Counted from the stretch's first letter, positions 2,863 through 34,812 are shown. The stretch: 35,183 bases of DNA from a virus (IMGVR_UViG_3300017785_006519:1-35183), one strand, 5' to 3'. Numbers and translations: made by a program. Notes: generated from the letters alone by a model not told the origin.

Positions 2863-3714
2863 ATGAAGTTCACCGCCAAGCTCGACGCCACGCCGGTCAA
2901 AACCTACTTCGGCGAGCTGGCGATCATCCTCAAGCAGTCCCTTCCCGACACCATACGCGGCGAGGGCGCGGCCATCGTGCGCAAGGCCATGAGCTTTCAA
3001 GCGTACTCCAAGATTGCCGAGGTCAAGGAACGCGCACTGAAAAAAGGCGTGGCATCATTCCGCATCGCCGCAGGATTCGGCGGCACGACCAACGTTTCCA
3101 AGCGGCGCGGCGAGTTTGGCAGTCAATGGATGGTCGGGCGCAAGGGCGGAAAGCCGATGCCGATGGGAATGTGGGATGGTACGCTAGGCGCAATTCGCGA
3201 CGGTAAACGATCCAGCGGCACCACAGGAAAGAAATTACAGCGCAGTAAAAATGGAGTGAACAAGATCCGCACCAAGCGCCAGACGAACGGCTGGTACGCG
3301 CCCGCCGCCGATTGGGCGCGCTACAAGGCCGCATGGGCAGCCGACGCAGAAGACACCAAGAAGCGCATCGCCGACCGCTTAGCCGCGCGAGGACTCGCGG
3401 CCAAGTCATGGCTTGAGATCATAGACAAGATCAACGCGGGCAGCGACGACGCCGCCGCCTTCATCCGCCGCGCCCGCCCCATCTCCAACAAGTCCCGCAG
3501 CGTGGCGGGCGTGGTGCAAACCGGCGCAGGCACGGCAAATTACCAGCTCACGATCATCAACGCATCCGGCATCGCCATCGCCTCGGGCGGACAGCGCAAG
3601 CTCGCCACGGCCATCACCATTCGCCGCAAATTCTTCATGGACAAACTGCGCGCCGGGTTCTTCGACGACGCCAAGTTCGTCGCGCGAAATTACAAGTGGG
3701 CGCGGTTCGGCTAA
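2863..3714 (+). CDS. Basic virion morphogenesis/neck-like protein
   Basis: ATG 2863 follows an operator and TTGAC; K/R-rich; function inferred from composition only. Confidence 0.5.
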   Translation: MKFTAKLDATPVKTYFGELAIILKQSLPDTIRGEGAAIVRKAMSFQAYSKIAEVKERALKKGVASFRIAAGFGGTTNVSKRRGEFGSQWMVGRKGGKPMPMGMWDGTLGAIRDGKRSSGTTGKKLQRSKNGVNKIRTKRQTNGWYAPAADWARYKAAWAADAEDTKKRIADRLAARGLAAKSWLEIIDKINAGSDDAAAFIRRARPISNKSRSVAGVVQTGAGTANYQLTIINASGIAIASGGQRKLATAITIRRKFFMDKLRAGFFDDAKFVARNYKWARFG

Positions 3715-3715
3715 C

Positions 3716-3734
3716 GTATTGACAAACTGGATAC
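3716..3734. promoter_or_regulatory. Late operator overlapping TTGACA
   Basis: GTATTgacaaactgGATAC. Confidence 0.7.
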
Positions 3735-19888: not shown

Positions 19889-20089
19889 ATGATCGAAGAA
19901 ATCATCTCCCCTTGGCCCATGACCGTCACGGTCGCGCCCGATGTTTTTGTGAACGTCACAGGCATCTCGGCAAACTCCTACGTCATCGACAACCGCATCG
20001 GACTCGAATCCCCGACCGCCGCCAACGAGGCTAACGTCGAAGCCGAGCTTCCAGCGCTCTGGGCTGCCTTCAAACTGACCAACCCGTGA
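19889..20089 (+). CDS. Hypothetical protein
   Basis: Coupled ORF after the tail fibre. Confidence 0.55.
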   Translation: MIEEIISPWPMTVTVAPDVFVNVTGISANSYVIDNRIGLESPTAANEANVEAELPALWAAFKLTNP

Positions 20090-20532
20090 AGCTCATGATC
20101 CTCACCCTCGTCGCCTGCATCGGTGCTGCCGTCATGGCCGTGATCGTTGCCGAGGAAATCCAACGCCACCGCTCCATGATTAAAGCCCTGCCACCCTCAC
20201 AAACCGTCGCTCCGCACGAAATCGACGGCATGTTGCGCGAGGGCTACCCGCTCGTCGCCGTCCTCGGCACCGGCTCCATGCAACCCTACATCCCCGCAGG
20301 CGATGGCCTCGTGGCGTGGGTCATGGTAGAGCGCTGTGATTTCAGCCTTTTGGGCAAAGGCGACCTGGTGGTTTTCCGCACTTCGCACGGCAACATCCTG
20401 CACCAACTCGCCCAGCTCACCGCAGCCGGCTGGATCACCTCGGGACTCCATAATTCCAGCTACGACAACACCCGCGTTTACCCCGAGACCTTCGTCGGGC
20501 GCGTGGCAAAAACTTACATCATCAAAAAATGA
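20086..20532 (+). CDS. S26/S24-like serine peptidase with N-terminal TM
   Basis: GTGSMQP, GDLVVF and ILHQL motifs. Confidence 0.6.
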   Translation: MKLMILTLVACIGAAVMAVIVAEEIQRHRSMIKALPPSQTVAPHEIDGMLREGYPLVAVLGTGSMQPYIPAGDGLVAWVMVERCDFSLLGKGDLVVFRTSHGNILHQLAQLTAAGWITSGLHNSSYDNTRVYPETFVGRVAKTYIIKK

Positions 20533-21189: not shown

Positions 21190-21227
21190 AAAAAGCCCCG
21201 CTTTTTACGGTGGGGCTTCTGGTTTTT
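21190..21227. terminator. Probable bidirectional intrinsic terminator
   Basis: AAGCCCCGC / GTGGGGCTT stem with A-run and T-rich flanks, between convergent operons. Confidence 0.75.
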
Positions 21228-21362
21228 ACAAGGCTTATGGGGTCTTGTGCTGATGGAAAGCTTTCCAGTTTAGCAGGCGTTAAGCGCGCCTAACTAGATC
21301 CGCGCAAAACCTACTTTTTTACGGTTTCCAAGTGGTGTGGCCCGCCTACATGGAAAATCTTC

Positions 21363-21381
21363 CGACTACACAACGTTCGGC
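21363..21381 (+). promoter_or_regulatory. attI-like entry site (core G|TTCGGC)
   Basis: GTTCGGC 21375-21381 complements R'' GCCGAAC of attC1; no attC hairpin upstream. Confidence 0.55.
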
Positions 21382-21635
21382 AGAAGCTGGCAGCGGGCTT
21401 TCCCCTGCATCGTTGCTTCATCCCGCCATTCCGTGACTCGGTAGCCACAGCGGATCAAATCGGCACGGGCTTCCTTCCATTGCCGCTCAAACTCGCGAGG
21501 CGACACGCCAGAGCGCATCACAGCGTAGTCCGAGACCTCAATCGTAAAGTCGTCAGGCAACTGAGCCGAACCAAGCGCTGGACTCAATGACCACGATTGG
21601 CCCGCTAATTGTTTGCTATCAGGTAGAGTGGTCAT
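21366..21635 (-). CDS. Cassette 1 hypothetical protein
   Basis: Start inside attC1 (alternative ATG 21518); ends LPNVV beyond the core. Confidence 0.6.
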   Translation of the reverse strand: MTTLPDSKQLAGQSWSLSPALGSAQLPDDFTIEVSDYAVMRSGVSPREFERQWKEARADLIRCGYRVTEWRDEATMQGKARCQLLPNVV

Positions 21636-21655
21636 GAGTCAGCTTTACGTTAGGC
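21565..21655 (+). repeat. attC 1
   Basis: GCCGAAC-caagc-GCTGGACT...AGTCAGC-tttac-GTTAGGC. Confidence 0.9.
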
Positions 21656-21671
21656 AATGCGGACACCGGAA

Positions 21672-21935
21672 TTAGCGTGGCCCTTCGAAAAGGTATTCTT
21701 CGGTTTCAAGTGTTTCTTTATGCTCGGCTTGGTTGCTCGCTAATAGATCGTCGTGGAGATTAGCCCATCCAAGTACCCAAAAAGGGACGTGCTCGCTCAT
21801 GTGGTTTGGGCACTTATTTGCGAACTGGAGTTGATTAGCAGTAAGCTCTAGTATTAGGCCCCACTTTGATTTAATCCTAGTGCCAATCGGTAGCGGTTTA
21901 TTATCCGCATACAGTTTATAGATTTCGGGTGTCAT
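21672..21935 (-). CDS. Cassette 2 hypothetical protein (87 aa)
   Basis: MTPEIYK start after the AT-rich leader. Confidence 0.75.
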   Translation of the reverse strand: MTPEIYKLYADNKPLPIGTRIKSKWGLILELTANQLQFANKCPNHMSEHVPFWVLGWANLHDDLLASNQAEHKETLETEEYLFEGPR

Positions 21936-21973
21936 GCTATTTATGGTTATATCGGAATTACGGAAGTTACAGA

Positions 21974-22063
21974 GCCTAACCACGCGCTACAGCGAATAGC
22001 CCGCAGACGTCGCAAATTGTTCGTGTAGGTGCAGTGGGCTATCGCTGAGCTTAAACGTTGGGC
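21974..22063 (+). repeat. attC 2
   Basis: GCCTAAC-cacgc-GCTACAGC...GCTGAGC-ttaaac-GTTGGGC. Confidence 0.95.
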
Positions 22064-22233
22064 AATGAAGCATCCCGAACCAGCCGCTCAAATGCGCGGG
22101 CTTGGCTGAGCTTCGTGATGTGGCAGTAAAGGCGGAATCGGGATGACGTATATTGATCCACCTTCACCGTCACCGCGACCCGAGCGGGGCCAGCCTTACG
22201 GCCTGCTCCTTTGCGTTTGCCTCCGGCGCTCAT
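22051..22233 (-). CDS. Cassette 3 small DNA-binding protein (GGKRKGAGRK motif, RHH-like), copy 1
   Basis: Differs by one residue from 24882..25064. Confidence 0.8.
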   Translation of the reverse strand: MSAGGKRKGAGRKAGPARVAVTVKVDQYTSSRFRLYCHITKLSQARAFERLVRDASLPNV

Positions 22234-22406
22234 GCGCGGCGCACGCTGTTTTTCTTTACTTTGCCGGTTTTCGTGAGGCGGCAGTCATATTCCGTTCCAC
22301 CAACGAAAAACATAAGAACGTCCTCCACTTGGCGAATCTGACTGATGACTTCATTGGAGACGTTGAGGGCGGCGGCGATGTCGTAGCGGTGTTGGGTTAA
22401 GTTCAT
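22230..22406 (-). CDS. Cassette 3 first gene (58 aa)
   Basis: MNLTQHRYDIAAALNV...SVRRA; ATGA overlap with the next gene. Confidence 0.7.
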   Translation of the reverse strand: MNLTQHRYDIAAALNVSNEVISQIRQVEDVLMFFVGGTEYDCRLTKTGKVKKNSVRRA

Positions 22407-22413
22407 GAGTTAG

Positions 22414-22441
22414 ACCCTGATAGTATTTTTATTGTTTGCAA
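22414..22441 (-). promoter_or_regulatory. Putative cassette-internal promoter
   Basis: TTGCAA-16 bp-CAGGGT, 7 nt before the ATG; homologous to 25269-25296. Confidence 0.45.
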
Positions 22442-22496
22442 GCACTATTTCAAAATAAATCAAAAAAAGATTTCGGAGACGGAAACGGGCATCAGA

Positions 22497-22589
22497 GCCC
22501 ATCAAGGCGCTAGAGCCAAGATGCGCATTGGCCCGCTGATGGTTTAGCGTCAGGGGTGTTGCGCATCTGGCTCAGCTTTAACGTTGGGC
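22497..22589 (+). repeat. attC 3 (R'' AAC changed to ATC)
   Basis: GCCCATC-aaggc-GCTAGAGC...GCTCAGC-tttaac-GTTGGGC. Confidence 0.9.
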
Positions 22590-22798
22590 AGAGGCGGAAC
22601 CAATCGTAGCCAATGCGTAGGAATCTCGTAAGATTCTAGTCGGCACCAATCCATCCGGCCGAAGCCATTTATGCTATACTCCTTCCAGCATCCGTTTACC
22701 CATCTACAGCCCATGAGCATTTGCTTGGATGTTTCACACCAAAGCACCAGATCGCTTCCGTCTTTGGGTGCTGTATCTATACTTTTCCAGTCATTCAT
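22550..22798 (-). CDS. Cassette 4 DUF551-like phage protein
   Basis: WKSIDTAPKDG...PTHW motifs. Confidence 0.8.
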   Translation of the reverse strand: MNDWKSIDTAPKDGSDLVLWCETSKQMLMGCRWVNGCWKEYSINGFGRMDWCRLESYEIPTHWLRLVPPLPNVKAEPDAQHP

Positions 22799-22843
22799 AG
22801 TTTATATTATTCAAGGGTTATTCGTAAATTAAAAGGCATCAGA

Positions 22844-22935
22844 GCCCAACCAGGCGCTAGAGCCAAGATGCGCATTGGGCCGCTGATTGTTTACTGTCAG
22901 GGGTGTTGCGCATCTGGCTCAGCTAGACGTTAGGC
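22844..22935 (+). repeat. attC 4
   Basis: GCCCAAC-caggc-GCTAGAGC...GCTCAGC-tagac-GTTAGGC. Confidence 0.95.
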
Positions 22936-23106
22936 AGATTTTAAGACAAAGTATGCGTGCTCAATATTGCATTCGTCCCATTCGCCGTGAAAGCATTTAG
23001 CCAGTGGTGTATATGCCTCATGAATGATCTTACTTAGCCGTGCGTTCTCGGCTTTGAGTTCGTCGTTTTCAGAAAGGACGGCTTTAAGTTGTTCGGTGGT
23101 TGTCAT
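22930..23106 (-). CDS. Cassette 5 hypothetical protein (58 aa)
   Basis: MTTTEQLKAV...FVLKSA; stop codon inside the core site. Confidence 0.75.
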   Translation of the reverse strand: MTTTEQLKAVLSENDELKAENARLSKIIHEAYTPLAKCFHGEWDECNIEHAYFVLKSA

Positions 23107-23140
23107 GTTATCTATTAGTTATCAGAATTAAAGACGCAGA

Positions 23141-23234
23141 GCCTAACCAAGCGCTACAGAGAACGACCACGCTATTGACTCAAATGGTTCGAGTGTCGGG
23201 TAGATGTGGTCGTCTCTGAGCTTAAACGTTGGGC
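23141..23234 (+). repeat. attC 5
   Basis: GCCTAAC-caagc-GCTACAGA...TCTGAGC-ttaaac-GTTGGGC. Confidence 0.95.
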
Positions 23235-23539
23235 AACTCGGAATTAAGGCCGAGCGCTTCAGCTGCGTTCCTAAATGCAGACACGTTTATCGCTTGGTTC
23301 CCGACTACCCTAACCTTTTTCATTGGGTCAAGCCCGTCCAGCGCGGAGGCAAATAACCCAAACGGAGCGAGTGCGTCTTGCAGCTTTTCGAGCTCATTGA
23401 TTAGTTTCCTGTATTCGGCCCGATTTACGCGAGCGTCATGAACTTCTAAAAGCGATGCCAGCTCAGGAATCGCATCGTGATTCCACTCCATGCGTTCGCA
23501 GTATTTTCCAGCAAGTGTGATATATTCGTCGGGTGTCAT
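23222..23539 (-). CDS. Cassette 6 hypothetical protein (105 aa)
   Basis: MTPDEYITL start after the conserved leader; ends LPNV. Confidence 0.75.
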   Translation of the reverse strand: MTPDEYITLAGKYCERMEWNHDAIPELASLLEVHDARVNRAEYRKLINELEKLQDALAPFGLFASALDGLDPMKKVRVVGNQAINVSAFRNAAEALGLNSELPNV

Positions 23540-23570
23540 TTGATTAGTTATTTCGGAAGCGGGCATTCGA

Positions 23571-23660
23571 GCCCAACCACGCGCTACAGCGAATAGCCCA
23601 ATAACGCCGCTGATGGTTCGTGTATTTGTTTGTGGGCTATCGCTGAGCTTTACGTTAGGC
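23571..23660 (+). repeat. attC 6
   Basis: GCCCAAC-cacgc-GCTACAGC...GCTGAGC-tttac-GTTAGGC. Confidence 0.95.
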
Positions 23661-23837
23661 AGAGTTGACCTTACGGACAAGTTCGCGGGCTGCTTTGAGC
23701 ACCCTATCGTGGTCAACGTCGTCGTAATCCACAAACATCCTTAGTGCCTGTTCAACCTGTAGGCTTTCGGATTCTTCAGTTATCAAGAGGCGTTTATCAC
23801 CGGGCTGCGGGTCGTGGAGTTTAAGTTTCATATTCAT
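23655..23837 (-). CDS. Cassette 7 hypothetical protein
   Basis: 60 aa; stop codon inside the core site. Confidence 0.75.
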   Translation of the reverse strand: MNMKLKLHDPQPGDKRLLITEESESLQVEQALRMFVDYDDVDHDRVLKAARELVRKVNSA

Positions 23838-23870
23838 TGTTGTTTAGTTATTCGGAATTAAAGACACGGA

Positions 23871-23959
23871 GCCTAACCAGGCGCTACAGCGAATAGCCCG
23901 CAACGCCGCTGATGGTTCGGCTAGTTTCAGTGGGCTATCGCTGAGCTTGAACGTTAGGC
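23871..23959 (+). repeat. attC 7
   Basis: GCCTAAC-caggc-GCTACAGC...GCTGAGC-ttgaac-GTTAGGC. Confidence 0.95.
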
Positions 23960-24265
23960 AGAGAATGAATCCAATTCAGCCTGATACTTCGCAATCTTAC
24001 CCTTTAGCCACTTAATCCGTTTTCCGTTAATCACAGTTTTTTCTGCGGATGTTTTTCGACGCCCATCGGTATGAATCATATCCTCCGTAAGAATAGCACC
24101 GCACTCATATGCCTTCATTACTAGTTTTTTGGTGAGCGTTCGGCGGGATGGTATTATTAGTGCACCAGTCACAGGATGGACTGCATCGACCTTTAGTTTT
24201 CTTCCTGCATATGCCGTGTCGCAGAATTTCATTTTTTCGCTAAGCTCTGTTTTCTTATTAGTCAT
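23954..24265 (-). CDS. Cassette 8 basic hypothetical protein
   Basis: 103 aa; stop codon inside the core site. Confidence 0.75.
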   Translation of the reverse strand: MTNKKTELSEKMKFCDTAYAGRKLKVDAVHPVTGALIIPSRRTLTKKLVMKAYECGAILTEDMIHTDGRRKTSAEKTVINGKRIKWLKGKIAKYQAELDSFSA

Positions 24266-24324
24266 AGTCTTTCGTTTAGTTTCAGTGTTCGTTTACATTA
24301 CCCAATCATCGGAAAAACCATACA

Positions 24325-24418
24325 GCCTAACCAGTCGCTACAGCGAATGAGCACACTAGGCACGCTAATGGATCGTGTATCGAGTAGAAGTGCTCATCGC
24401 TGAGCTTGAACGTTGGGC
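24325..24418 (+). repeat. attC 8
   Basis: GCCTAAC-cagtc-GCTACAGC...GCTGAGC-ttgaac-GTTGGGC. Confidence 0.95.
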
Positions 24419-24765
24419 AATGCAGAAAGTTCGGACTCTGCTTTTTTAATGGCGACATGTGATCTTTCAATTACCCGCCTAAGTTGGTTTATCTTTTTCT
24501 CTCGCTTCTCCGCGTCCTTCTGCGCCTGCGTAAGTTTTCTGTGAATTTCCTTTTTTCTCATGTTGGGCTTCATCCACCCAACCTCACGCATGCGATTAAC
24601 GAATCCATCCCCGCACCCCTTAAAGGATCGCCAGTAGTTTTCCGTTTTTTCACTGAATAAGTGTTGCGGTATTTTATCGACATTTAAGGCGTGTCTTATC
24701 GCGGCCTGTTCCAGCGGCCTAAATACTGACATACGCACCTCGTTCTTTATTTTTTCGGTTATCAT
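24394..24765 (-). CDS. Cassette 9 hypothetical protein (123 aa, C-terminal coiled coil)
   Basis: MITEKIKNE start after the conserved leader; ends LPNVQAQR. Confidence 0.75.
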   Translation of the reverse strand: MITEKIKNEVRMSVFRPLEQAAIRHALNVDKIPQHLFSEKTENYWRSFKGCGDGFVNRMREVGWMKPNMRKKEIHRKLTQAQKDAEKREKKINQLRRVIERSHVAIKKAESELSALPNVQAQR

Positions 24766-24802
24766 AAATTCGTTTAGTTTTATTCGGAAGGGATACAAAG
24801 AC

Positions 24803-24894
24803 GCCCAACCAAGCGCTACAGAGAACGACCACGCTTGGCACTCTAATGGTTCGGGAGTCAGGGAGAGTGGTCGTCTCTGAGCTAGACGTTGGGC
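24803..24894 (+). repeat. attC 9
   Basis: GCCCAAC-caagc-GCTACAGA...TCTGAGC-tagac-GTTGGGC. Confidence 0.95.
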
Positions 24895-25064
24895 AATGAA
24901 GCATCCCGAACCAGTCGCTCGAATGCGCGGGCTTGGCTGAGCTTCGTGATGTGGCAGTAAAGGCGGAAGCGGGATGACGTGTATTCGTCCACCTTCACCG
25001 TCACAGCGACCCGAGCGGGGCCAGCCTTGCGGCCTGCACCTTTGCGTTTTCCTCCTGCGCTCAT
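24882..25064 (-). CDS. Cassette 10 small DNA-binding protein, copy 2
   Basis: Near-identical to 22051..22233. Confidence 0.8.
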   Translation of the reverse strand: MSAGGKRKGAGRKAGPARVAVTVKVDEYTSSRFRLYCHITKLSQARAFERLVRDASLPNV

Positions 25065-25261
25065 GCGGCCATTGCTGCGTTGATGGATGGAGCAGCAACC
25101 CGAGCGATCTGCGTGAATTTATCGCCCATGTAGTTATATGCAATCTGCGCATCAGCATATCCTAAGCTCTGCGCGACCTTGAAGAAATGGTCGGCGCGCT
25201 TCTGCGCGGCGCTAGCAATGCGGGCGTTTTTAATGCGGTCGGATGTGTTAAGTAGGTTCAT
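25061..25261 (-). CDS. Cassette 10 first gene (66 aa)
   Basis: ATGA overlap; unrelated to the cassette 3 first gene beyond MNL. Confidence 0.7.
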   Translation of the reverse strand: MNLLNTSDRIKNARIASAAQKRADHFFKVAQSLGYADAQIAYNYMGDKFTQIARVAAPSINAAMAA

Positions 25262-25268
25262 GAGTTAG

Positions 25269-25296
25269 ACCGTAAGAGCGTTTTGATTGATTGCAA
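25269..25296 (-). promoter_or_regulatory. Putative cassette-internal promoter
   Basis: TTGCAA-16 bp-TACGGT, 7 nt before the ATG; flanked by ATCAAAA repeats. Confidence 0.55.
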
Positions 25297-25350
25297 GCAC
25301 TAAATCAAAATAAATCAAAATAGATTTAGGAGACGGAAACGAGCATCCGA

Positions 25351-25445
25351 GCCCAACCAAGCGCTGGAGCCAACGACCCTGCTTGTCACTCTAATGGTTC
25401 GATTATCGCAGGTGTTAGGGTCGCGGCTCAGCTTTAACGTTGGGC
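25351..25445 (+). repeat. attC 10
   Basis: GCCCAAC-caagc-GCTGGAGC...GCTCAGC-tttaac-GTTGGGC. Confidence 0.95.
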
Positions 25446-25447
25446 AA

Positions 25448-25657
25448 TCAATGACCGGATTCATCGGTCTGCCAGTAATAGCAGGCTACGCGAAAAGCGT
25501 ATGTGGCGTCCACCCATCGCTTTTCTTTTATATACCGCTCGCCGATTTCTTCGCATTTTCCGGCAATTATTGCGGGCCGTAAATTACGCGACGGCATCGG
25601 CTGGCGTTCGGTGCAAGCCTCGTATGCAATGTTTTTAGCTTCTTGGTCTTCGTTCAT
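25448..25657 (-). CDS. Cassette 11 hypothetical protein
   Basis: 69 aa after the conserved leader. Confidence 0.7.
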   Translation of the reverse strand: MNEDQEAKNIAYEACTERQPMPSRNLRPAIIAGKCEEIGERYIKEKRWVDATYAFRVACYYWQTDESGH

Positions 25658-25698
25658 TTCAGTAATTTATTTAGTTATTCGGAAGGGATACAACGACC

Positions 25699-25745
25699 GC
25701 CCAACTATCAGGTAGAGTGGTCATGAGTCAGCTTGAGCGTTGGGC
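25699..25745 (+). repeat. attC 11, internally deleted (left arm lost)
   Basis: GCCCAAC joined directly to TATCAGGTAGAGTGGTCATGAGTCAGCTT, which is identical to the right arm of attC1, then GTTGGGC. Confidence 0.85.
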
Positions 25746-25747
25746 AA

Positions 25748-26335
25748 TCAGGAATCGGAAAGAGGCAGCTTGATCTCGGTGTAAATGCTAAGCGGTCCCG
25801 CCTTATCCAGCCAGTCACTCTGCCCTTGGCTCTCGGTTGACCGCTTATCGACCCCGTCTAGCACAGCCAAAGCGGCCGCATGGTCTCGATTGTATTCATC
25901 CACTTGTTCTTTCGAGCACACGTCCGGCAAGCAGTCCGGCCCCCACGATGCTAGTTTGGTTAAAGCTTTCCTGATCCGTCCGTTTTCCGCCTCAATCTCA
26001 GCGTATAATTTATATCGCATGCAATTGGTGGTCCACTCATCAGGACGACTTTCATTGGGCAATGGAGACACCAAGGCATCCCATGCGTCTATCTCTCGCG
26101 GCGCGTCGCCGATTTTGTGGCACTCAAAAGCGAGCGCGTCACGCAGAGCTTTTCCGCACTCCCGCAGCTTGGTGTTCTCGGCCCGCACTTGACGCAGCTC
26201 CTCGGCGTTGCAGCTCGCATCTAGCTCCATTTGTAGCCGTGCGTTCTCCCGCTCTAGGTTTTCGATTCGTTTACGCGCTGGAGAGCATTGCGCCTCCACC
26301 ATTTCCGCGAATTGTTCGTCAGTTAAATTGTCCAT
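25748..26335 (-). CDS. Coiled-coil hypothetical protein, probable fusion of two former cassette ORFs
   Basis: MDNLTD start; internal LPN encoded by a relic core ATTGGGC at 26054-26060. Confidence 0.65.
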   Translation of the reverse strand: MDNLTDEQFAEMVEAQCSPARKRIENLERENARLQMELDASCNAEELRQVRAENTKLRECGKALRDALAFECHKIGDAPREIDAWDALVSPLPNESRPDEWTTNCMRYKLYAEIEAENGRIRKALTKLASWGPDCLPDVCSKEQVDEYNRDHAAALAVLDGVDKRSTESQGQSDWLDKAGPLSIYTEIKLPLSDS

Positions 26336-26348
26336 ATTGTTTTTCGTT

Positions 26349-26759
26349 TTAGTTATCAGTTGAGCCAAAACCGCCCGCGCCGCGCTCGCTCGAATCCAGC
26401 TCGGCAACGACTGGCAGCGCCGCAAGCATGATGCGCGCTACCACGGCTTGCGCCACCCGTTGTCCCGACTCAATCGTTATCGGGTAATGCGTGAGGTTGG
26501 TCACTATTGCCGCCACTTCGCCGCGATAACCGGAATCCACCGTTCCGATGTGGCAGAGTAGGCCGCGCGCCGATAGGGACGAACGGCCACGGATCTGCAT
26601 TTCAAAGCCGTCTGGCAGTTGCACCGCGAAGCCGAGCGGGATTTTCACCGTGTAACCTGCGCCAATCACGGCGGGTTCACGGGCGCAGCAGTCAAGGCCG
26701 GCGTCGTTGGCGTGGGCGCGCGTTGGCGCTTGGCCGTTTTCAATCAGTTTTATTTTCAT
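26349..26759 (-). CDS. dut: dUTPase (trimeric family)
   Basis: AGLD, GRSS, GTVDSGYRG, RVAQ and RGAGGFGST motifs; alternative start at 26867. Confidence 0.95.
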   Translation of the reverse strand: MKIKLIENGQAPTRAHANDAGLDCCAREPAVIGAGYTVKIPLGFAVQLPDGFEMQIRGRSSLSARGLLCHIGTVDSGYRGEVAAIVTNLTHYPITIESGQRVAQAVVARIMLAALPVVAELDSSERGAGGFGSTDN

Positions 26760-26863
26760 TGGAGGGATTAAGCGTTGGGTTGAAGTGAGTCGGCGCTCTC
26801 GGGCGGCGCGTAGTGAGCGCGCCCAGTCGCTGCCGGTTATTGTTGTGAATTTTGCGGGCTCGC

Positions 26864-27592
26864 TCATGGCGTGGCTCGCGTGAATTTAACCACCGTGCAG
26901 AGGTCAAGTAGGCGCTGAATCATAGGGTCGCTGCGCTGCGCCCGCTTGTCGGTGGTGCCGCTCATCTGGTCGGGCGTGAGGTTGGTCGAAACAATCAGCG
27001 GCAGTCCGCGCTCGCGGCGCATGTCCAGAAATCGGAAAAACCAGCTCTGCGCCCAATCTTCCTGCGAGCGTTGCAGCGCCTCTTGCCCTAGGTCGTCGAG
27101 AATGAAGATCGGCTTCTTCGCCATTTCCACGACCCACCCCTGCGCATCGTCGCGCCCGAACTTGATCTGCTGGCCAAGGGTAAAGAAGAAATCGGCGGCG
27201 GAAAAGTAGCGCACCTCGCGGGCCTCATCCAGCGCCAGCTTGCGGTAAAGCGCCGTGATTGCGCGGGTCTTCCCCGTGCCCGTCGGCCCCGATGCGAGCA
27301 GGCCGCGAGCGCCAGGTGTCCAGCTTAGGACGGTTTTAATCTGCGCCGCGTTGGGCTGCATCGCCGGGTGATTCCAGTCGCTCACTTGGTACTCGCTGCC
27401 GATGTCACGGGCAAAACGGTTTGCGGCGTCTTTGGCGCGTGCTTCGGCCACAAGTCGGGTCGATACCGCTTCGTGGTCTGTAATCGCCCCAGACCGCAGG
27501 GAATCCACATCAACGCCCCACGCTTGCGCGAAGGTGGCGGCAATGTCGCCCAGCGCGGCGCTTGCGGTGGTCGTTTGGGTATCACCACGCAT
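26864..27592 (-). CDS. DnaC/IstB-like AAA+ helicase loader
   Basis: GPTGTGKT, ILDDLG and STN motifs. Confidence 0.9.
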   Translation of the reverse strand: MRGDTQTTTASAALGDIAATFAQAWGVDVDSLRSGAITDHEAVSTRLVAEARAKDAANRFARDIGSEYQVSDWNHPAMQPNAAQIKTVLSWTPGARGLLASGPTGTGKTRAITALYRKLALDEAREVRYFSAADFFFTLGQQIKFGRDDAQGWVVEMAKKPIFILDDLGQEALQRSQEDWAQSWFFRFLDMRRERGLPLIVSTNLTPDQMSGTTDKRAQRSDPMIQRLLDLCTVVKFTRATP

Positions 27593-29842: not shown

Positions 29843-30481
29843 TTAGGCTTTGTCGATTTGGAGTAATGGGAGGGCGAGGTAGCGGGCTGCTTTGTAATCG
29901 GCCACGAACGCATCAAGTGAGGCGGCGAGCTTTTCCGTGTAGTCATCCCAGTGAACGATGACGTGGTGCGGCTTCATGCCCGGGAAGTAGCTCCAGAAGT
30001 GCCACTCGGTGAGGCCGGTAACGGCCATGCTGCCGTGCACCTGCTGCTTGTAATCGTCGGGCAAACCGCCGTCTAAAACGTAGCCGATGTGCACCTTGGG
30101 CGACGGGCATTTGATTTCGAGCCCCGCCATGTATTCGCCAGCGGCGTCGGTGATGAGTCCATCGGGCGAGCATCCCGTGATGCCGTCGTCACGGATACAA
30201 AACCCGACCTGCGCCACGGTCAGCCCGGTAGCTTTGGCAAACGACTCCCGCGCTTCGGGCTCAAGGTCGTTGCCGCGCTGCATGTCGGCGCTCTTAAAAA
30301 TGTAGCTCCACTCAGGGCAGAAGGTTTGGCCGATCAGTTCGCGGATGTAACCCTTGGCCGACTTGCTCAAATCGCCCTTGGCGGCGGTGATGATGTCGGA
30401 AAAGCGCGAGGCCGTGGGGCGACCGCAGCGGGCTTGCAACCATTCCGGCGTGCCCTGTTCAAGCTCTAGGATGACTCTCAT
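29843..30481 (-). CDS. YqaJ/lambda exonuclease family protein
   Basis: QGTPEWLQAR, TASRF, GCSPDG and LEIKCP motifs. Confidence 0.93.
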   Translation of the reverse strand: MRVILELEQGTPEWLQARCGRPTASRFSDIITAAKGDLSKSAKGYIRELIGQTFCPEWSYIFKSADMQRGNDLEPEARESFAKATGLTVAQVGFCIRDDGITGCSPDGLITDAAGEYMAGLEIKCPSPKVHIGYVLDGGLPDDYKQQVHGSMAVTGLTEWHFWSYFPGMKPHHVIVHWDDYTEKLAASLDAFVADYKAARYLALPLLQIDKA

Positions 30482-31164
30482 TGTGCGCCCTCCTCGGTGC
30501 TGGCGATGTCGGAGGCGAACGGGTTAATCGGGGTTTCGAGCGCCACCGTTTCGGCTTTCGACGGAGTGACGTTGCGGGGTAAATCCGCTGCGATGTGGCC
30601 CAGCTCCTCGGTGGTTTTTAATCCCTTGAGCACGTCGCCGAAATTGTCGCGCAGGTTAAAACCACGGGCGCGGAAAAGCAGCATGCGTTCGGGGTACTGC
30701 GTCCACGGGCCGGCCTTGCCCCAAAGACCGGCGAGCTTGGCGTCGGCCACGCTGAAGCGGGATTCAAGCGGCTCGGAGTCCACGCGCTTGCTCGTCACGA
30801 TGACCGTGAGCTTGTCGCCCGTGCCCTCGGTTTTTTGGACGTAGCTTTGGCACAGCCCCGAGGCGCGAACCAGGGCGAGGGCGGCGTCACCGTAGATGCC
30901 GGGGCGTCCGTTGATGACGCCGATGTTTTGCAGCGCGGCCATCGGGGTGAGCCCCAACTCCATGCCGAGCTGAATGGCGATCAGGATGGACTCAGGTTTT
31001 TCCATGCCCTTGGGGGCGAAGCCGCTTGTGGCAACGGCCTTGGCGAAGCGGAAGGCTTCTTCGAGCGATTGGAGTTGAACGCCGGTCTTGCCCATCGCCA
31101 TGCGAGGCGGAACGGGCGCGAGTGCGGTTGTCGTGGGGACGGTGATTTGTGTGGTTTCGCTCAT
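30478..31164 (-). CDS. RecT-like single-strand annealing protein
   Basis: GMELGLTPM, INGRP and WTQYPERML motifs; adjacent to the exonuclease. Confidence 0.8.
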   Translation of the reverse strand: MSETTQITVPTTTALAPVPPRMAMGKTGVQLQSLEEAFRFAKAVATSGFAPKGMEKPESILIAIQLGMELGLTPMAALQNIGVINGRPGIYGDAALALVRASGLCQSYVQKTEGTGDKLTVIVTSKRVDSEPLESRFSVADAKLAGLWGKAGPWTQYPERMLLFRARGFNLRDNFGDVLKGLKTTEELGHIAADLPRNVTPSKAETVALETPINPFASDIASTEEGAQ

Positions 31165-33198: not shown

Positions 33199-33381
33199 CA
33201 CCCTAAAAAGACATATTTACCCTAAAATATGGCGATTTTAGGGGTGTTTACCCCTAAACATATTTTACCCTAAAAAATGCTCTTTATAGGGCTTACCCCT
33301 ATAAACATATTTTCCCCCCTATATACATAGGGGGTGGAATATGTTTGGGGAGTAGGGTTGGATTTACCCTAAACCCTAAAC
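33199..33381. repeat. Iteron-like CCCTAAA / ACATATTT repeat cluster
   Basis: Multiple direct and inverted copies in an AT-rich intergenic region. Confidence 0.75.
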
Positions 33382-34584
33382 CGGATTCGGCGGCATGACC
33401 TCAAAGAACTCATCGGCCGCCCCTTCTTCGGGCAGGACCAGGTAATGCCCAAACGCCGTGGCCGATGAGTTGCCCGCCTGCCGCGTCGTGTCGGCAATAT
33501 CCTGCCCGCGCTGAAAATGGTACGACAGCCCCGTGTGCCGCAAAATATTTTCCTGCCAAACATCCGACACGATCCCGCGCTTCTTGTTTTTGACCGGCCC
33601 GCGCTTGGCGAGCCCCGCCGCCTCCCTCACCCCATCCCAACTCACACGCTTGCAGCTCGCCACCGGCTCACCCGTCGCCAGCGCCCTAGCCTTGGCTGCG
33701 ATGAGCACCGGCAACACGCAGGCCGGTACGGTCACGGTGCGATAACTCACCGTGCCACGTTTTCGCGGTCTGACCTCGATTGTCGGGGTTTTTGCGTCAA
33801 GGCGCATGTCGGCAGGCAAAACCCGCAGCGCTTCGGCGTGGCGCATGAAACACCAGCACGCGAGGGCCACATAAGCAGCCATTCCTTGCGATTTGGCGCG
33901 CTTTGCGGCACCCATTAGGGCGTGGGTATGGGCAGGGGTCAGAATGCGCGGCAAATCGACCGCGCGGGCACGTTCACTTAAATCCTTAAAATCGACCTCG
34001 AAAGGAATTTCCTTCACCCACCGCCGCTTCTTCCAGTGATTCGCCCACGCTTGCAGCACAGCGGCGTCGTTTTTCCGCGTGAAATCCGCCCGCTTCCCAC
34101 GATAAACGAACTCCTCGTAATGCTCCGGCGTCACCTCGCCCACGTTCGACACCCCAATCTCAGCCAGCCAAACCGTAAACGCCCGACACCGGCTAAGGTT
34201 ATTCGACCTCGTTGCATCCTGCCGCCCACGCTCAGCCTGATGCGCGAGCCAATCGGCCAGCGCTTGGGTGAGCGGCACGGGGTCGCCCTTGACCATGACG
34301 CGGTCGGAGGCGATCACGCAGGCCAGAAGCGAGCGCCCCCCTGCCCGCTCCACTGCGGCCTCGGCATCGCGGAGCTGGGCCTCGGTGAGCCTAGTCATGC
34401 GCGGAGCCATGATGTTCTCGGTCGCCTGCGTGAGCACGGCCTGCATTTCCTGCATCTTTGCACGCAGCGCGGCGACGTCGCGCCCCTGCTTGCGGATACG
34501 CTTGCCCAGATGGAATCCATCGAGGAGCCATGAACCGCCGGGAAGCGGAATGAGTCGGAGCAGATTCTCGCGGTGTCGGGCCAT
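33376..34584 (-). CDS. int: Phage tyrosine integrase
   Basis: MRHAEAL (R), NILRHT, AGNS...HY; adjacent to attP. Confidence 0.92.
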   Translation of the reverse strand: MARHRENLLRLIPLPGGSWLLDGFHLGKRIRKQGRDVAALRAKMQEMQAVLTQATENIMAPRMTRLTEAQLRDAEAAVERAGGRSLLACVIASDRVMVKGDPVPLTQALADWLAHQAERGRQDATRSNNLSRCRAFTVWLAEIGVSNVGEVTPEHYEEFVYRGKRADFTRKNDAAVLQAWANHWKKRRWVKEIPFEVDFKDLSERARAVDLPRILTPAHTHALMGAAKRAKSQGMAAYVALACWCFMRHAEALRVLPADMRLDAKTPTIEVRPRKRGTVSYRTVTVPACVLPVLIAAKARALATGEPVASCKRVSWDGVREAAGLAKRGPVKNKKRGIVSDVWQENILRHTGLSYHFQRGQDIADTTRQAGNSSATAFGHYLVLPEEGAADEFFEVMPPNPV

Positions 34585-34592
34585 GCCGTACA

Positions 34593-34812
34593 GTTGGCGT
34601 TAATCTTGGCGAGAATCAAGAAAAGCGGCGAAAATCAGCGAATTATCGCCAACTCTGCCAGAATTAAGGAGGGGCCCAAAACCCCACTTTCTCCTCTGAG
34701 AGAGTGGAGCCGATGGTCGGGATTGAACCGACGACCTGCGGTTTACGATACCGAGGGCGCTACCTCTCAAGAGCTGGAATGTTGGCGTTAATTGTTGGCC
34801 ATTCTCGCCAAC
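34593..34812. repeat. Integrase arm-type sites TTGGCG(A/T)(G/T)AAT
   Basis: Copies at 34593, 34606 and 34781 (+) and at 34642 and 34801 (-), flanking the core. Confidence 0.7.
34705..34748 (-). other. attP core: 3' half of tRNA-Thr(CGT)
   Basis: TCGTAAACCGCAGGTCGTCGGTTCAATCCCGACCATCGGCTCCA contains the anticodon loop, T-arm, acceptor strand and CCA; no 5' half. Confidence 0.88.

Follow-up and report, generated by a model that had tools for sequence, protein, structure and literature searches.

The window analysed here, all 35,183 nucleotides of one viral record (IMGVR_UViG_3300017785_006519), raises the question of how a phage can carry an array of integron recombination sites without an integron integrase, and of which enzyme could work on them. 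The record is that of a temperate phage whose accessory early genes sit in cassettes. An initial annotation had described eleven attC-type palindromes, ten full ones of 89-95 bp and one deleted to 47 bp, and all eleven were recovered, every one on the plus strand. They are listed here together with a decayed R' box.

21565 to 21655, plus strand: attC1, 46.4 bits
21974 to 22063, plus strand: attC2, 54.9 bits
22497 to 22589, plus strand: attC3, 46.0 bits
22844 to 22935, plus strand: attC4, 50.0 bits
23141 to 23234, plus strand: attC5, 53.0 bits
23571 to 23660, plus strand: attC6, 48.1 bits
23871 to 23959, plus strand: attC7, 57.6 bits
24325 to 24418, plus strand: attC8, 57.6 bits
24803 to 24894, plus strand: attC9, 52.3 bits
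25351 to 25445, plus strand: attC10, 67.3 bits, the most host-like of the sites
25699 to 25745, plus strand: attC11, 22.5 bits, with a deletion from just after R'' to mid-stem
26054 to 26060, plus strand: decayed R' (ATTGGGC) whose attC is lost; contig joints end at 26055 in runs X2 and X4

The sites consist of R'' (GCC(T/C/G)A(A/T)C), a 5-nt spacer, an 8-nt L'' with one extra base, a stem, a 7-nt L', a 5-6-nt spacer and R' (GTT(A/G)GGC). The inverted R''/R' boxes of attC sites (RYYYAAC ... GTTRRRY) are thus present, with two exceptions at R'' (one GCCCATC and one GCCGAAC), and L''/L' boxes with an extrahelical base and unpaired spacers of 5 and 5-6 nt occur in 10 of the 11 sites. The remaining one, attC11, has no L'' and is likely to be inactive. 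A strict pattern scan returned 9 sites on the plus strand and, on the minus strand, a single weaker reading of the same site at 24803, against a mean of 0.03 and a maximum of 1 match in 100 approximate dinucleotide shuffles. A covariance model, the check that the initial annotation had proposed, scored the ten full sites at 46-67 bits and the deleted site at 22.5 bits, all on the plus strand, with the next best match at 13.7 bits on the minus strand; this model was built from 27 bacterial attC, most of them found with a pattern taken from the window. The bottom strands fold with extrahelical bases, with z at or below -2.3 in 8 of the 10 full sites and at -1.78 and -0.66 in the other two. A search of the array against Rfam matched no family. 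The minus strand was also considered as the attC top strand, and was ruled out by the covariance model and by the cassette-end tests described below. With 11 attC within 4.2 kb and intI absent from the 35-kb record, the region fits the definition of a CALIN.

Just to the left of the first cassette are two further features.

21193 to 21230, no strand assigned: terminator-like hairpin where the late and early operons converge, immediately to the left of the attI-like site, with a 10-bp stem and a T tail on the plus strand
21222 to 21382, plus strand: attI-like docking site, crossover G/TT at 21375/21376

The attI-like site is kept in 12 related loci, ending at GTT with different DNA after it in each, and the hairpin is present in most relatives. 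Positions 21360-21382 are identical (23/23) to the site upstream of intI in G116, a genome of G002's family, which is the family of an Opitutaceae MAG (E 1e-4 over the whole genome). A profile of the phage sites, from which L107 was left out as near-identical to L106, matched the site upstream of intI in the chromosomal integron L243 (E 1.7e-4) and also that in L242, and the core common to phage and host integrons is TTTCC(G/T)..CTA.ACAAC-G/TT. By this homology, 21375 is the predicted attI of the array and a docking site of host type. As for a complete integron, homology and variable insertions at its G/TT place an attI at the head of the array, and the intI gene is missing. A promoter scan at the site gave no sigma-70-like match above chance level, with a conserved TTTACA present and a consensus that may not be that of the host. 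In G063, a candidate prophage between tRNA-Thr and an attI match contained no window protein; the site there is a host attI with normal cassettes.

What the cassettes encode is listed below, with the first gene to the right of the array.

21366 to 21635, minus strand: cassette 1 gene, 89 aa, the sole ATG-started reading, starting inside attC1 and ending across the attI crossover (LLPNVV and stop); no family
21672 to 21935, minus strand: cassette 2 gene, 87 aa, no family
22051 to 22406, minus strand: cassette 3, a variable 58-aa gene, then a 60-aa ribbon-helix-helix (RHH)-like gene; homologues in L104 and L108
22550 to 22798, minus strand: cassette 4 gene, 82 aa, DUF551-like phage protein, running through R' into attC3
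22930 to 23106, minus strand: cassette 5 gene, 58 aa, its stop the TAA of the R box; 93% homologue in L109/L125
23222 to 23539, minus strand: cassette 6 gene, 105 aa, 99% identity in L108, with 4 synonymous changes and 1 non-synonymous
23655 to 23837, minus strand: cassette 7 gene, 60 aa, no named function
23954 to 24265, minus strand: cassette 8 gene, 103 aa, no named function
24394 to 24765, minus strand: cassette 9 gene, 123 aa, no named function, running through R' into attC8
24882 to 25261, minus strand: cassette 10, a variable 66-aa gene, then a second copy of the 60-aa RHH-like gene
25448 to 25657, minus strand: cassette 11 gene, 69 aa, no named function
25748 to 26335, minus strand: 195-aa ORF; DNA from 26055 on matches cassette starts of L118, L163 and L106
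26349 to 26867, minus strand: dUTPase; with it the fixed part of the leftward early operon ends, and the operon reads on into the array

The dUTPase is where the initial annotation had placed it; on the left the array is bordered by a 144-aa protein with no named family in profile searches and a weak signal-peptidase-like match below the cut-off. The cassette genes lie on the bottom strand of attC, the reverse of bacterial cassettes, and the usual top-strand gene ending at R'' was not encountered. Among bacterial segments, 71 of 79 have their longest ORF on the top strand; among phage segments, 29 of 39 have it on the bottom strand. PHROG matches were obtained for 13 of 72 bottom-strand ORFs against 2 of 52 top-strand ORFs. 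The best synonymous frame was on the bottom strand in 20 of 25 compared pairs; judged by these substitutions, the bottom-strand frames are under purifying selection. A 112-aa top-strand ORF of L104/L106 was rejected as a canonical cassette gene, since the bottom-strand frame has the higher synonymous share. The GC content of the array is 0.49 against 0.60 in the rest of the window, and the predicted cassette genes are of phage type. The claim that the array captures accessory genes stands in part: cassette content varies between relatives, but most cassettes hold phage genes and not captured host genes.

Pfam and PHROGs gave no name to any cassette protein of the window. The RHH-like call in cassette 3 comes from a feature score of 0.95 to viral clusters, one of them 66% RHH_1; its copy in cassette 10 is 94% identical, with a match that begins at G/TT and contains 10 synonymous changes and 1 non-synonymous on the minus strand. 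The 82-aa protein of cassette 4 scored 0.92 by features and gave a TM of 0.62-0.67 to a DUF551 model, with no Pfam match and with itself as the sole return of a large protein search. The 195-aa ORF is likely to be an in-frame fusion of two former cassette genes. INPHARED held no cultured relative of the array, just 35-nt dUTPase matches, and none for L001 either.

When relatives were compared at the same locus, their cassettes differed and the borders fell at G/TT, so that the two outcomes that would have spoken against the initial annotation, invariant relatives or breakpoints elsewhere, were not seen. In 11/11 cassettes of the window, position 4 of R'' can pair with the R' that opens the same cassette; with the adjacent R' it does so in 5/11. 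Over all loci the counts of this circular-partner test are 62/74 for the own start and 38/87 for the adjacent R' (permutation mean 32.4, maximum 46), with 12 of the 74 cassettes failing it; the pairs and cassettes are related and these counts not independent, and L157 and L159 (same length and sites as the window) and overlapping loci of one contig were dropped from the comparison. By this measure the cassette ends carry the signature of a circular intermediate. The L'-R' spacer tracks the attC body (z 3.5) and not the right flank (z 0.6), whereas R' position 4 tracks the right flank (z 3.0) and not the body (z 1.5); together the two patterns bracket the crossover at G/TT.

One cassette is identical in L109 and L124, including its attC up to the G, with both neighbours different, and such identical cassettes in new contexts suggest recent turnover. 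The relatives' arrays also contain normally oriented cassettes with host-type attC, among them a Phd/YefM and ParE pair in L143. In L104 a 137-aa gene sits at attI, while in L109 it follows an attC; its 103-nt attC shares a stem core with the host attC beside intI. A second attC family has the same inverted layout in dozens of viral contigs. Contigs of five runs contained no circle junction. The one contig joint that goes back, from 22064 to 21619, is not of the kind that a cassette circle would give; those from 21371 to 22054 (X2, X4) and from 21372 to 24886 (X2) are weak evidence of a different first cassette at attI, as they have 30-33-nt sides at lowered likeness and probably stem from co-occurring relatives.

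Which integrase could act on these sites depends on what the phage and its host encode. At the right end of the window are the phage's own integration functions.

33376 to 34584, minus strand: ordinary phage tyrosine integrase, not IntI (phrog_1)
34705 to 34753, plus strand: attP core, the 3' end of tRNA-Thr(CGT), 49/49 identical to the G142 tRNA

That no IntI is encoded here, as previously noted, was borne out: the single tyrosine recombinase matches phrog_1 and, weakly, XerC/D, and does not match TIGR02249. IntI was found in 0/10 related phages, 7 of whose records are less than 90% complete, and no trace of intI lies beside the attI-like site in 10 relatives. A search of the window for tRNA genes found none. 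In G002's family, IntI was above the cut-off in 66 of 151 genomes. Looking for intI in a host identified through attP led, in a search of this one family, to G142, which gave the best attP match and has IntI; G142 yielded no attI match (best E 0.56) and no match to the strict attC pattern. Opitutaceae are the likely host family. A host call from the terminase was set aside as too weak, with one Verrucomicrobia label among the 120 matches listed.

From these comparisons, we consider it probable that this is an integrase-less phage integron, made up of an attI-like site and eleven attC cassettes with bottom-strand genes, on which host IntI acts in trans and which the early operon reads. Host IntI in trans with variable content had been proposed in the initial annotation, and it gains comparative support from the G/TT borders, the host-type attI and cassettes, and the occurrence of IntI in the host family and in none of 10 relatives; that account was incomplete, missing the inverted genes and the attI. 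When the phage infects an Opitutaceae host or resides in it as a lysogen, host IntI would recombine the folded bottom strands of attC sites, both among themselves and with the phage attI; cassettes would be excised as circles and reinserted, dropping out, changing order or entering at 21375 or at an attC. As the genes face the leftward early operon, each cassette could be read from the phage's own upstream promoters, with a hairpin at the 5' end of the gene, a short A-rich leader and a stop codon that comes from the R box or the following cassette. Host cassettes in normal orientation may enter by the same reaction, and would lie antisense and so be silent unless self-promoted.

We regard it as unlikely that the enzyme comes instead from a helper phage whose early operon ends with an intI of its own, or that the lineage has lost intI and its array is slowly freezing. 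In four phage loci (L316, L322, L323 and L324) an attI-like GTT, with a different gene running into it in each, is indeed followed directly by an IntI relative (45% identity across the whole query), and L322 has an attC of the same family, so that a co-resident phage is a possible source. However, the attI of these loci differs from that of the window (profile E 0.6-7.8, not significant), which the host attI matches closely. In IntI-bearing viral loci the upstream attC is always opposite to intI, and gene direction is split 7 against 8 by a crude coverage measure, the intI ORF having escaped the search pattern in many of these loci. Scanning viral sequences with one host IntI turned up 1 locus. 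The deleted attC11 and the attC lost at 26054 are signs of decay as expected of a freezing array, but the identical cassettes in new contexts point the other way, as does the lack of any intI trace beside the site in 10 relatives.

Phages exchange modules by Red/RecET-type recombination at conserved intergenic repeats, and the window encodes the means to do so.

29843 to 31164, minus strand: YqaJ exonuclease and RecT-like annealing protein

An integron-derived array might now be shuffled mainly by these proteins between leader-plus-attC repeats, its hairpins kept as translation or transcription modules. As in such exchange, small accessory early genes lie between repeated leaders, which unrelated genes share, and the reading frame is fixed across the crossover in 45 of 74 cassettes. 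Read by eye, the attC body differs in 8 of 12 pairs that share the DNA left of R'', and 3 of 87 attC are chimeras of two types, which point to homologous recombination. The attC body and leader are weakly linked (z 2.0), which counts against pure bottom-strand IntI action, as that predicts tight linkage. We still give this explanation little chance, as it leaves unaccounted for an attI identical to the host's over 23 nt, different cassettes inserted exactly at the attI G/TT, a place that lacks any attC repeat, host-type cassettes carrying an attC of their own, and the one-strand extrahelical bases in all sites with matched stem halves in most attC; the repeats, unlike those of Red/RecET exchange, are full attC with a host-type attI and a single-base crossover signature. 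Within the phage integron served by host IntI, a second exchange route that swaps attC bodies near R'' is nevertheless likely. Either top-strand action of IntI at R'' or RecT-type recombination within the leader and attC ends that cassettes share could account for this route, which may turn phage genes into cassettes as it moves attC bodies between genes.

That a host integron block was captured once by transduction and is inert has a parallel in Vibrio prophages described as holding pieces of host chromosomal integron (Qi et al. 2023, PMC9892861), and attC and attI are host-like, but this is very improbable given phage-type genes on the strand opposite to host cassettes, content that differs in every relative with borders at G/TT, and bottom-strand frames under apparent purifying selection.

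That phages can carry attC clusters without intI is known from published work: Qi et al. (PMC9892861) report 17 CALINs among 10,705 phage genomes, recombination of 5/6 phage attC by IntI1, and a Shewanella prophage CALIN that begins with attI. The window shares with these the attC cluster without intI; outside captured chromosomal pieces theirs have 2-4 attC, whereas the window has 11 and an attI, and the parts of their text consulted make no mention of inverted genes, of a conserved attI at which a phage family turns over its cassettes, or of mixed phage-type and host cassettes. When their examples were rescanned, the one attC found in TJE1 was in canonical orientation and MW202573 was inverted (by eye). 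Our literature search did not find inverted cassette genes and attI in phage arrays in print. Chromosomal integrons of Opitutaceae/Verrucomicrobia (L062, L080, L235, L242, L243, L367-L369) have the same attC family, attI core and array direction from attI as the phage, but intI lies upstream of their attI, where the phage has the terminator-like hairpin, and their genes are on the top strand. Class 1 and Vibrio integrons, as far as described in the portions of Bouvier 2009 (PMC2727003) and Loot 2017 (PMC5371416) consulted, likewise share the R''/L''/L'/R' boxes, extrahelical L'' base, unpaired spacer and G/TT crossover; there strand selectivity sets genes in the direction of Pc, whereas the phage genes oppose that direction, and the phage operon would read them starting at the far end.

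Integrons are usually viewed as bacterial devices in which strand selectivity serves Pc; this phage family keeps the docking site, drops the enzyme and appears to reverse the genes for its own operon. It is possible, if doubtful, that such phages run a cassette economy of their own on host integron machinery, with a host-compatible attI, inverted cassettes built by hairpin swaps onto shared leaders, and two-way trade with host integrons. Were this true, phage arrays would be a birthplace of new cassettes, whose origin integron biology has yet to explain. The layout itself is widespread among environmental phages, and the same gene with different attC bodies offers a testable setting for how genes gain attC sites. 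If host IntI acts on the array, the turnover of phage accessory genes would be tied to a host enzyme, and cassettes, including those for toxin-antitoxin pairs, could move between phage and chromosome.

The attI-headed array of 11 cassettes is real; its phage genes are inverted, it lacks an integrase, and its units are IntI-type cassettes, placed as follows relative to the flanking features of the window.

21222..21382, candidate attI, crossover G|TT at 21375/21376
25699..25745, + strand, attC11, the shortened site
26349..26867, - strand, dUTPase
34705-34753, attP core, 3' end of tRNA-Thr(CGT), 49/49 identity in G142, a genome of the likely-host family

All 11 attC of the initial annotation (ten of 89-95 bp, one cut to 47 bp) were borne out on the + strand; shuffled sequence gave 0.03 pattern matches on average. 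A covariance model trained on 27 bacterial attC recovered 11/11 on the + strand, with 46-67 bits, 22.5 for the shortened site and 13.7 for the next best match, a likeness in sequence that is partly built in because the training sites were mostly gathered with a window-derived pattern; their polarity is independently supported by the direction of the bacterial genes. The bottom strands fold with extrahelical bases (z <= -2.3 in 8/10 full sites). There is partial decay within the array, attC11 having no L'' and an attC having been lost at 26054, with two genes likely fused there. Right ends of arrays often carry half an attC, made up of R'' and L'' alone, beside fixed phage genes, as in L138/L145 and L118/L124.

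We analysed 22 loci, the window among them; the others were drawn from viral and metagenome contigs by means of the attC pattern and of a gene in the flank. Position 4 of R'' is complementary to the R' at the start of its own cassette in 11/11 cases in the window, compared with 5/11 for the adjacent R', and across all loci in 62/74 versus 38/87 (permutation maximum 46), the pairing that passage through a circle predicts. No circle was found in the contigs of five runs. The L'-R' spacer varies with the attC body, and position 4 of R' with the DNA downstream; the crossover is thereby bracketed at G|TT, where breakpoints had been expected; the spacer is unlike in 16/18 pairs with common DNA right of R' (judged by eye, in pairs that are not independent). 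One cassette is identical in L109 and L124, its attC included up to the G, with different neighbours on both sides.

The left end of the array is a conserved non-coding site of ∼156 nt that ends in GTT (21375-21377) and occurs in 12 of the 35 loci searched. Cassette content differs at this same locus among relatives, the variation that the initial annotation had proposed looking for: 13 aligned attI-like rows each continue differently after GTT, and L106 and L107 have identical sites with unlike DNA beyond. Against 32 host intI loci, the attI profile matched best immediately upstream of intI, on the strand opposite to it (E 1.7e-4 in L243 and 0.18 in L242; shuffles 2.0 at best). Only 4/32 carry the core motif, which thus characterises a single subset of these integrons. 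The phage site of 151 nt is best matched in the 5.2-Mb genome G116 at that position, with 23/23 identity, ∼90 nt from the intI start; in G143 and G063, too, the matches lie at attI, heading arrays of normal cassettes. In two host genomes a second attI leads a cassette array whose neighbouring intI is truncated or missing (L367:4182-5150; L369:10014). A 148-aa protein (20086-20532) with a weak signal-peptidase-I-like match (TIGR02228, below cut-off) is kept left of the array in relatives.

The attC top strand is the + strand, yet all plausible cassette genes lie on the - strand. By a crude measure, the longest ORF is on the attC top strand in 71/79 segments of bacterial arrays with the same pattern and on the bottom strand in 29/39 segments of phage arrays. 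PHROG families matched 13/72 bottom-strand ORFs versus 2/52 top-strand ORFs, the former being RNA ligase, DNA methyltransferase and families of unknown function, with none among the window ORFs. In 20/25 homologous pairs the open frame whose changes are synonymous in the largest proportion is a bottom-strand one, and the duplicated 60-aa gene of the window has 10 synonymous versus 1 non-synonymous change; two window proteins resemble viral clusters, one RHH-like and one DUF551. Genes start 31-90 nt past their own attC after an A-rich leader, or within the hairpin (cassette 1), and finish at the R box that follows: of 74, 45 pass through it in a Pro-Asn frame, 19 are in frame with a stop from GTTAGGC, 7 are in the third frame and 3 are without a long ORF. 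The loop of the attC carries the ATG and opening codons of the gene downstream in attC1 of the window and in L118 (115- and 132-nt attC), L163 (128-nt), L134, L138 and L322, so that the hairpin also serves as the 5' end of the gene. A two-gene cassette recurs in the window (22051-22496, 24882-25350), L104 and L108: behind an AT-rich leader that resembles a promoter stand a variable gene of 55-72 aa and then a conserved RHH-like one of 60 aa. The variable gene, in the middle, is replaced between constant flanks, and the cassette is possibly a self-regulated module.

The window, which is the entire record, is a temperate phage of 35 kb. Terminase, portal and capsid genes lie on its + strand, and an early operon (RecT, YqaJ, RusA, replication initiator, DnaC-like loader, dUTPase) runs leftward on the - strand. 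The phage's sole integrase is of the ordinary phage type, in agreement with the claim that it encodes no IntI, and IntI was not found in the 10 related phage records searched, 3 of them complete. In the family that includes the Opitutaceae MAG G002, the one family searched for the attP tRNA, a 44-base tRNA-Thr pattern matched with <=2 mismatches in 3/201 genomes, and IntI scored above cut-off in 66/151, G142 and G063 among them; the top attP and top attI matches fall in separate genomes.

That a host IntI acts on the array in trans, as first proposed, we regard as probable: variable content, G|TT borders and the host-type attI support it, whereas the swapping of attC bodies near R'' does not. 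Host IntI would cut cassettes out at G|TT and put them back at attI or an attC. The leftward operon, entering from dUTPase, would read the inverted genes, its transcript ending at the hairpin 21193-21230; because it reads toward attI, a cassette newly placed there would come last in the transcript, the opposite of the Pc gradient. In lambdoid phages the origin lies within the initiator gene, and with such an origin here replication would use the bottom strand as its lagging-strand template, the genes remaining co-directional with the fork. That role of the strand favours attC recombination, according to Loot 2017 (PMC5371416).

Against purely IntI action count the attC bodies, unlike in 8/12 pairs with common DNA left of R'', the weak linkage of body to leader (z 2.0) and 3/87 attC that are halves of two types joined. 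One candidate for these swaps is top-strand recombination at R'', a known outcome with altered sites (Bouvier 2009, PMC2727003); RecT-type recombination is the other.

Qi et al. 2023 (PMC9892861) describe phage CALINs and prophage integrons and report that IntI1 recombined 5/6 phage attC. No paper on inverted cassettes in phages, or on a phage attI array lacking an integrase, was found in a literature that mostly excluded subscription papers, and the figures and Dryad annotations of Qi 2023 could show orientation. In one CALIN published there (MW202573; L239:2281-2340, 3671-3730) genes lie on the attC bottom strand, as judged by eye; its methyltransferase has the C-terminus -KPNV. A second pattern, made for a different family of short attC, matched 65 viral loci, with flanking ORFs on the bottom strand upstream in 47/56 and downstream in 37/55, and at least 2 attC in that direction in 28/61 non-duplicate loci.

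Some phages encode their own putative IntI relative directly after an attI-like site. In L316, L322, L323 and L324 unlike genes lead into the site, followed by the relative, and L322 holds an attC of the window's family; these four are likely complete phage integrons. Within the early operon the relative comes as the gene right after the site (L316:5940-6987, L322:4040-5091, L323, L324), and the upstream genes share the ending -NKNYPD, read through the site. A few top-strand cassettes occur in the arrays of relatives, none in the window. These include a Phd/YefM and ParE toxin-antitoxin cassette antisense to the phage genes (L143:5447-5988) and a 137-aa gene that follows an attC in L109 and occupies the attI position in L104. 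The attC of these cassettes measure 103 nt and have a stem core in common with attC beside host intI genes, a resemblance suggesting that host cassettes enter phage arrays.
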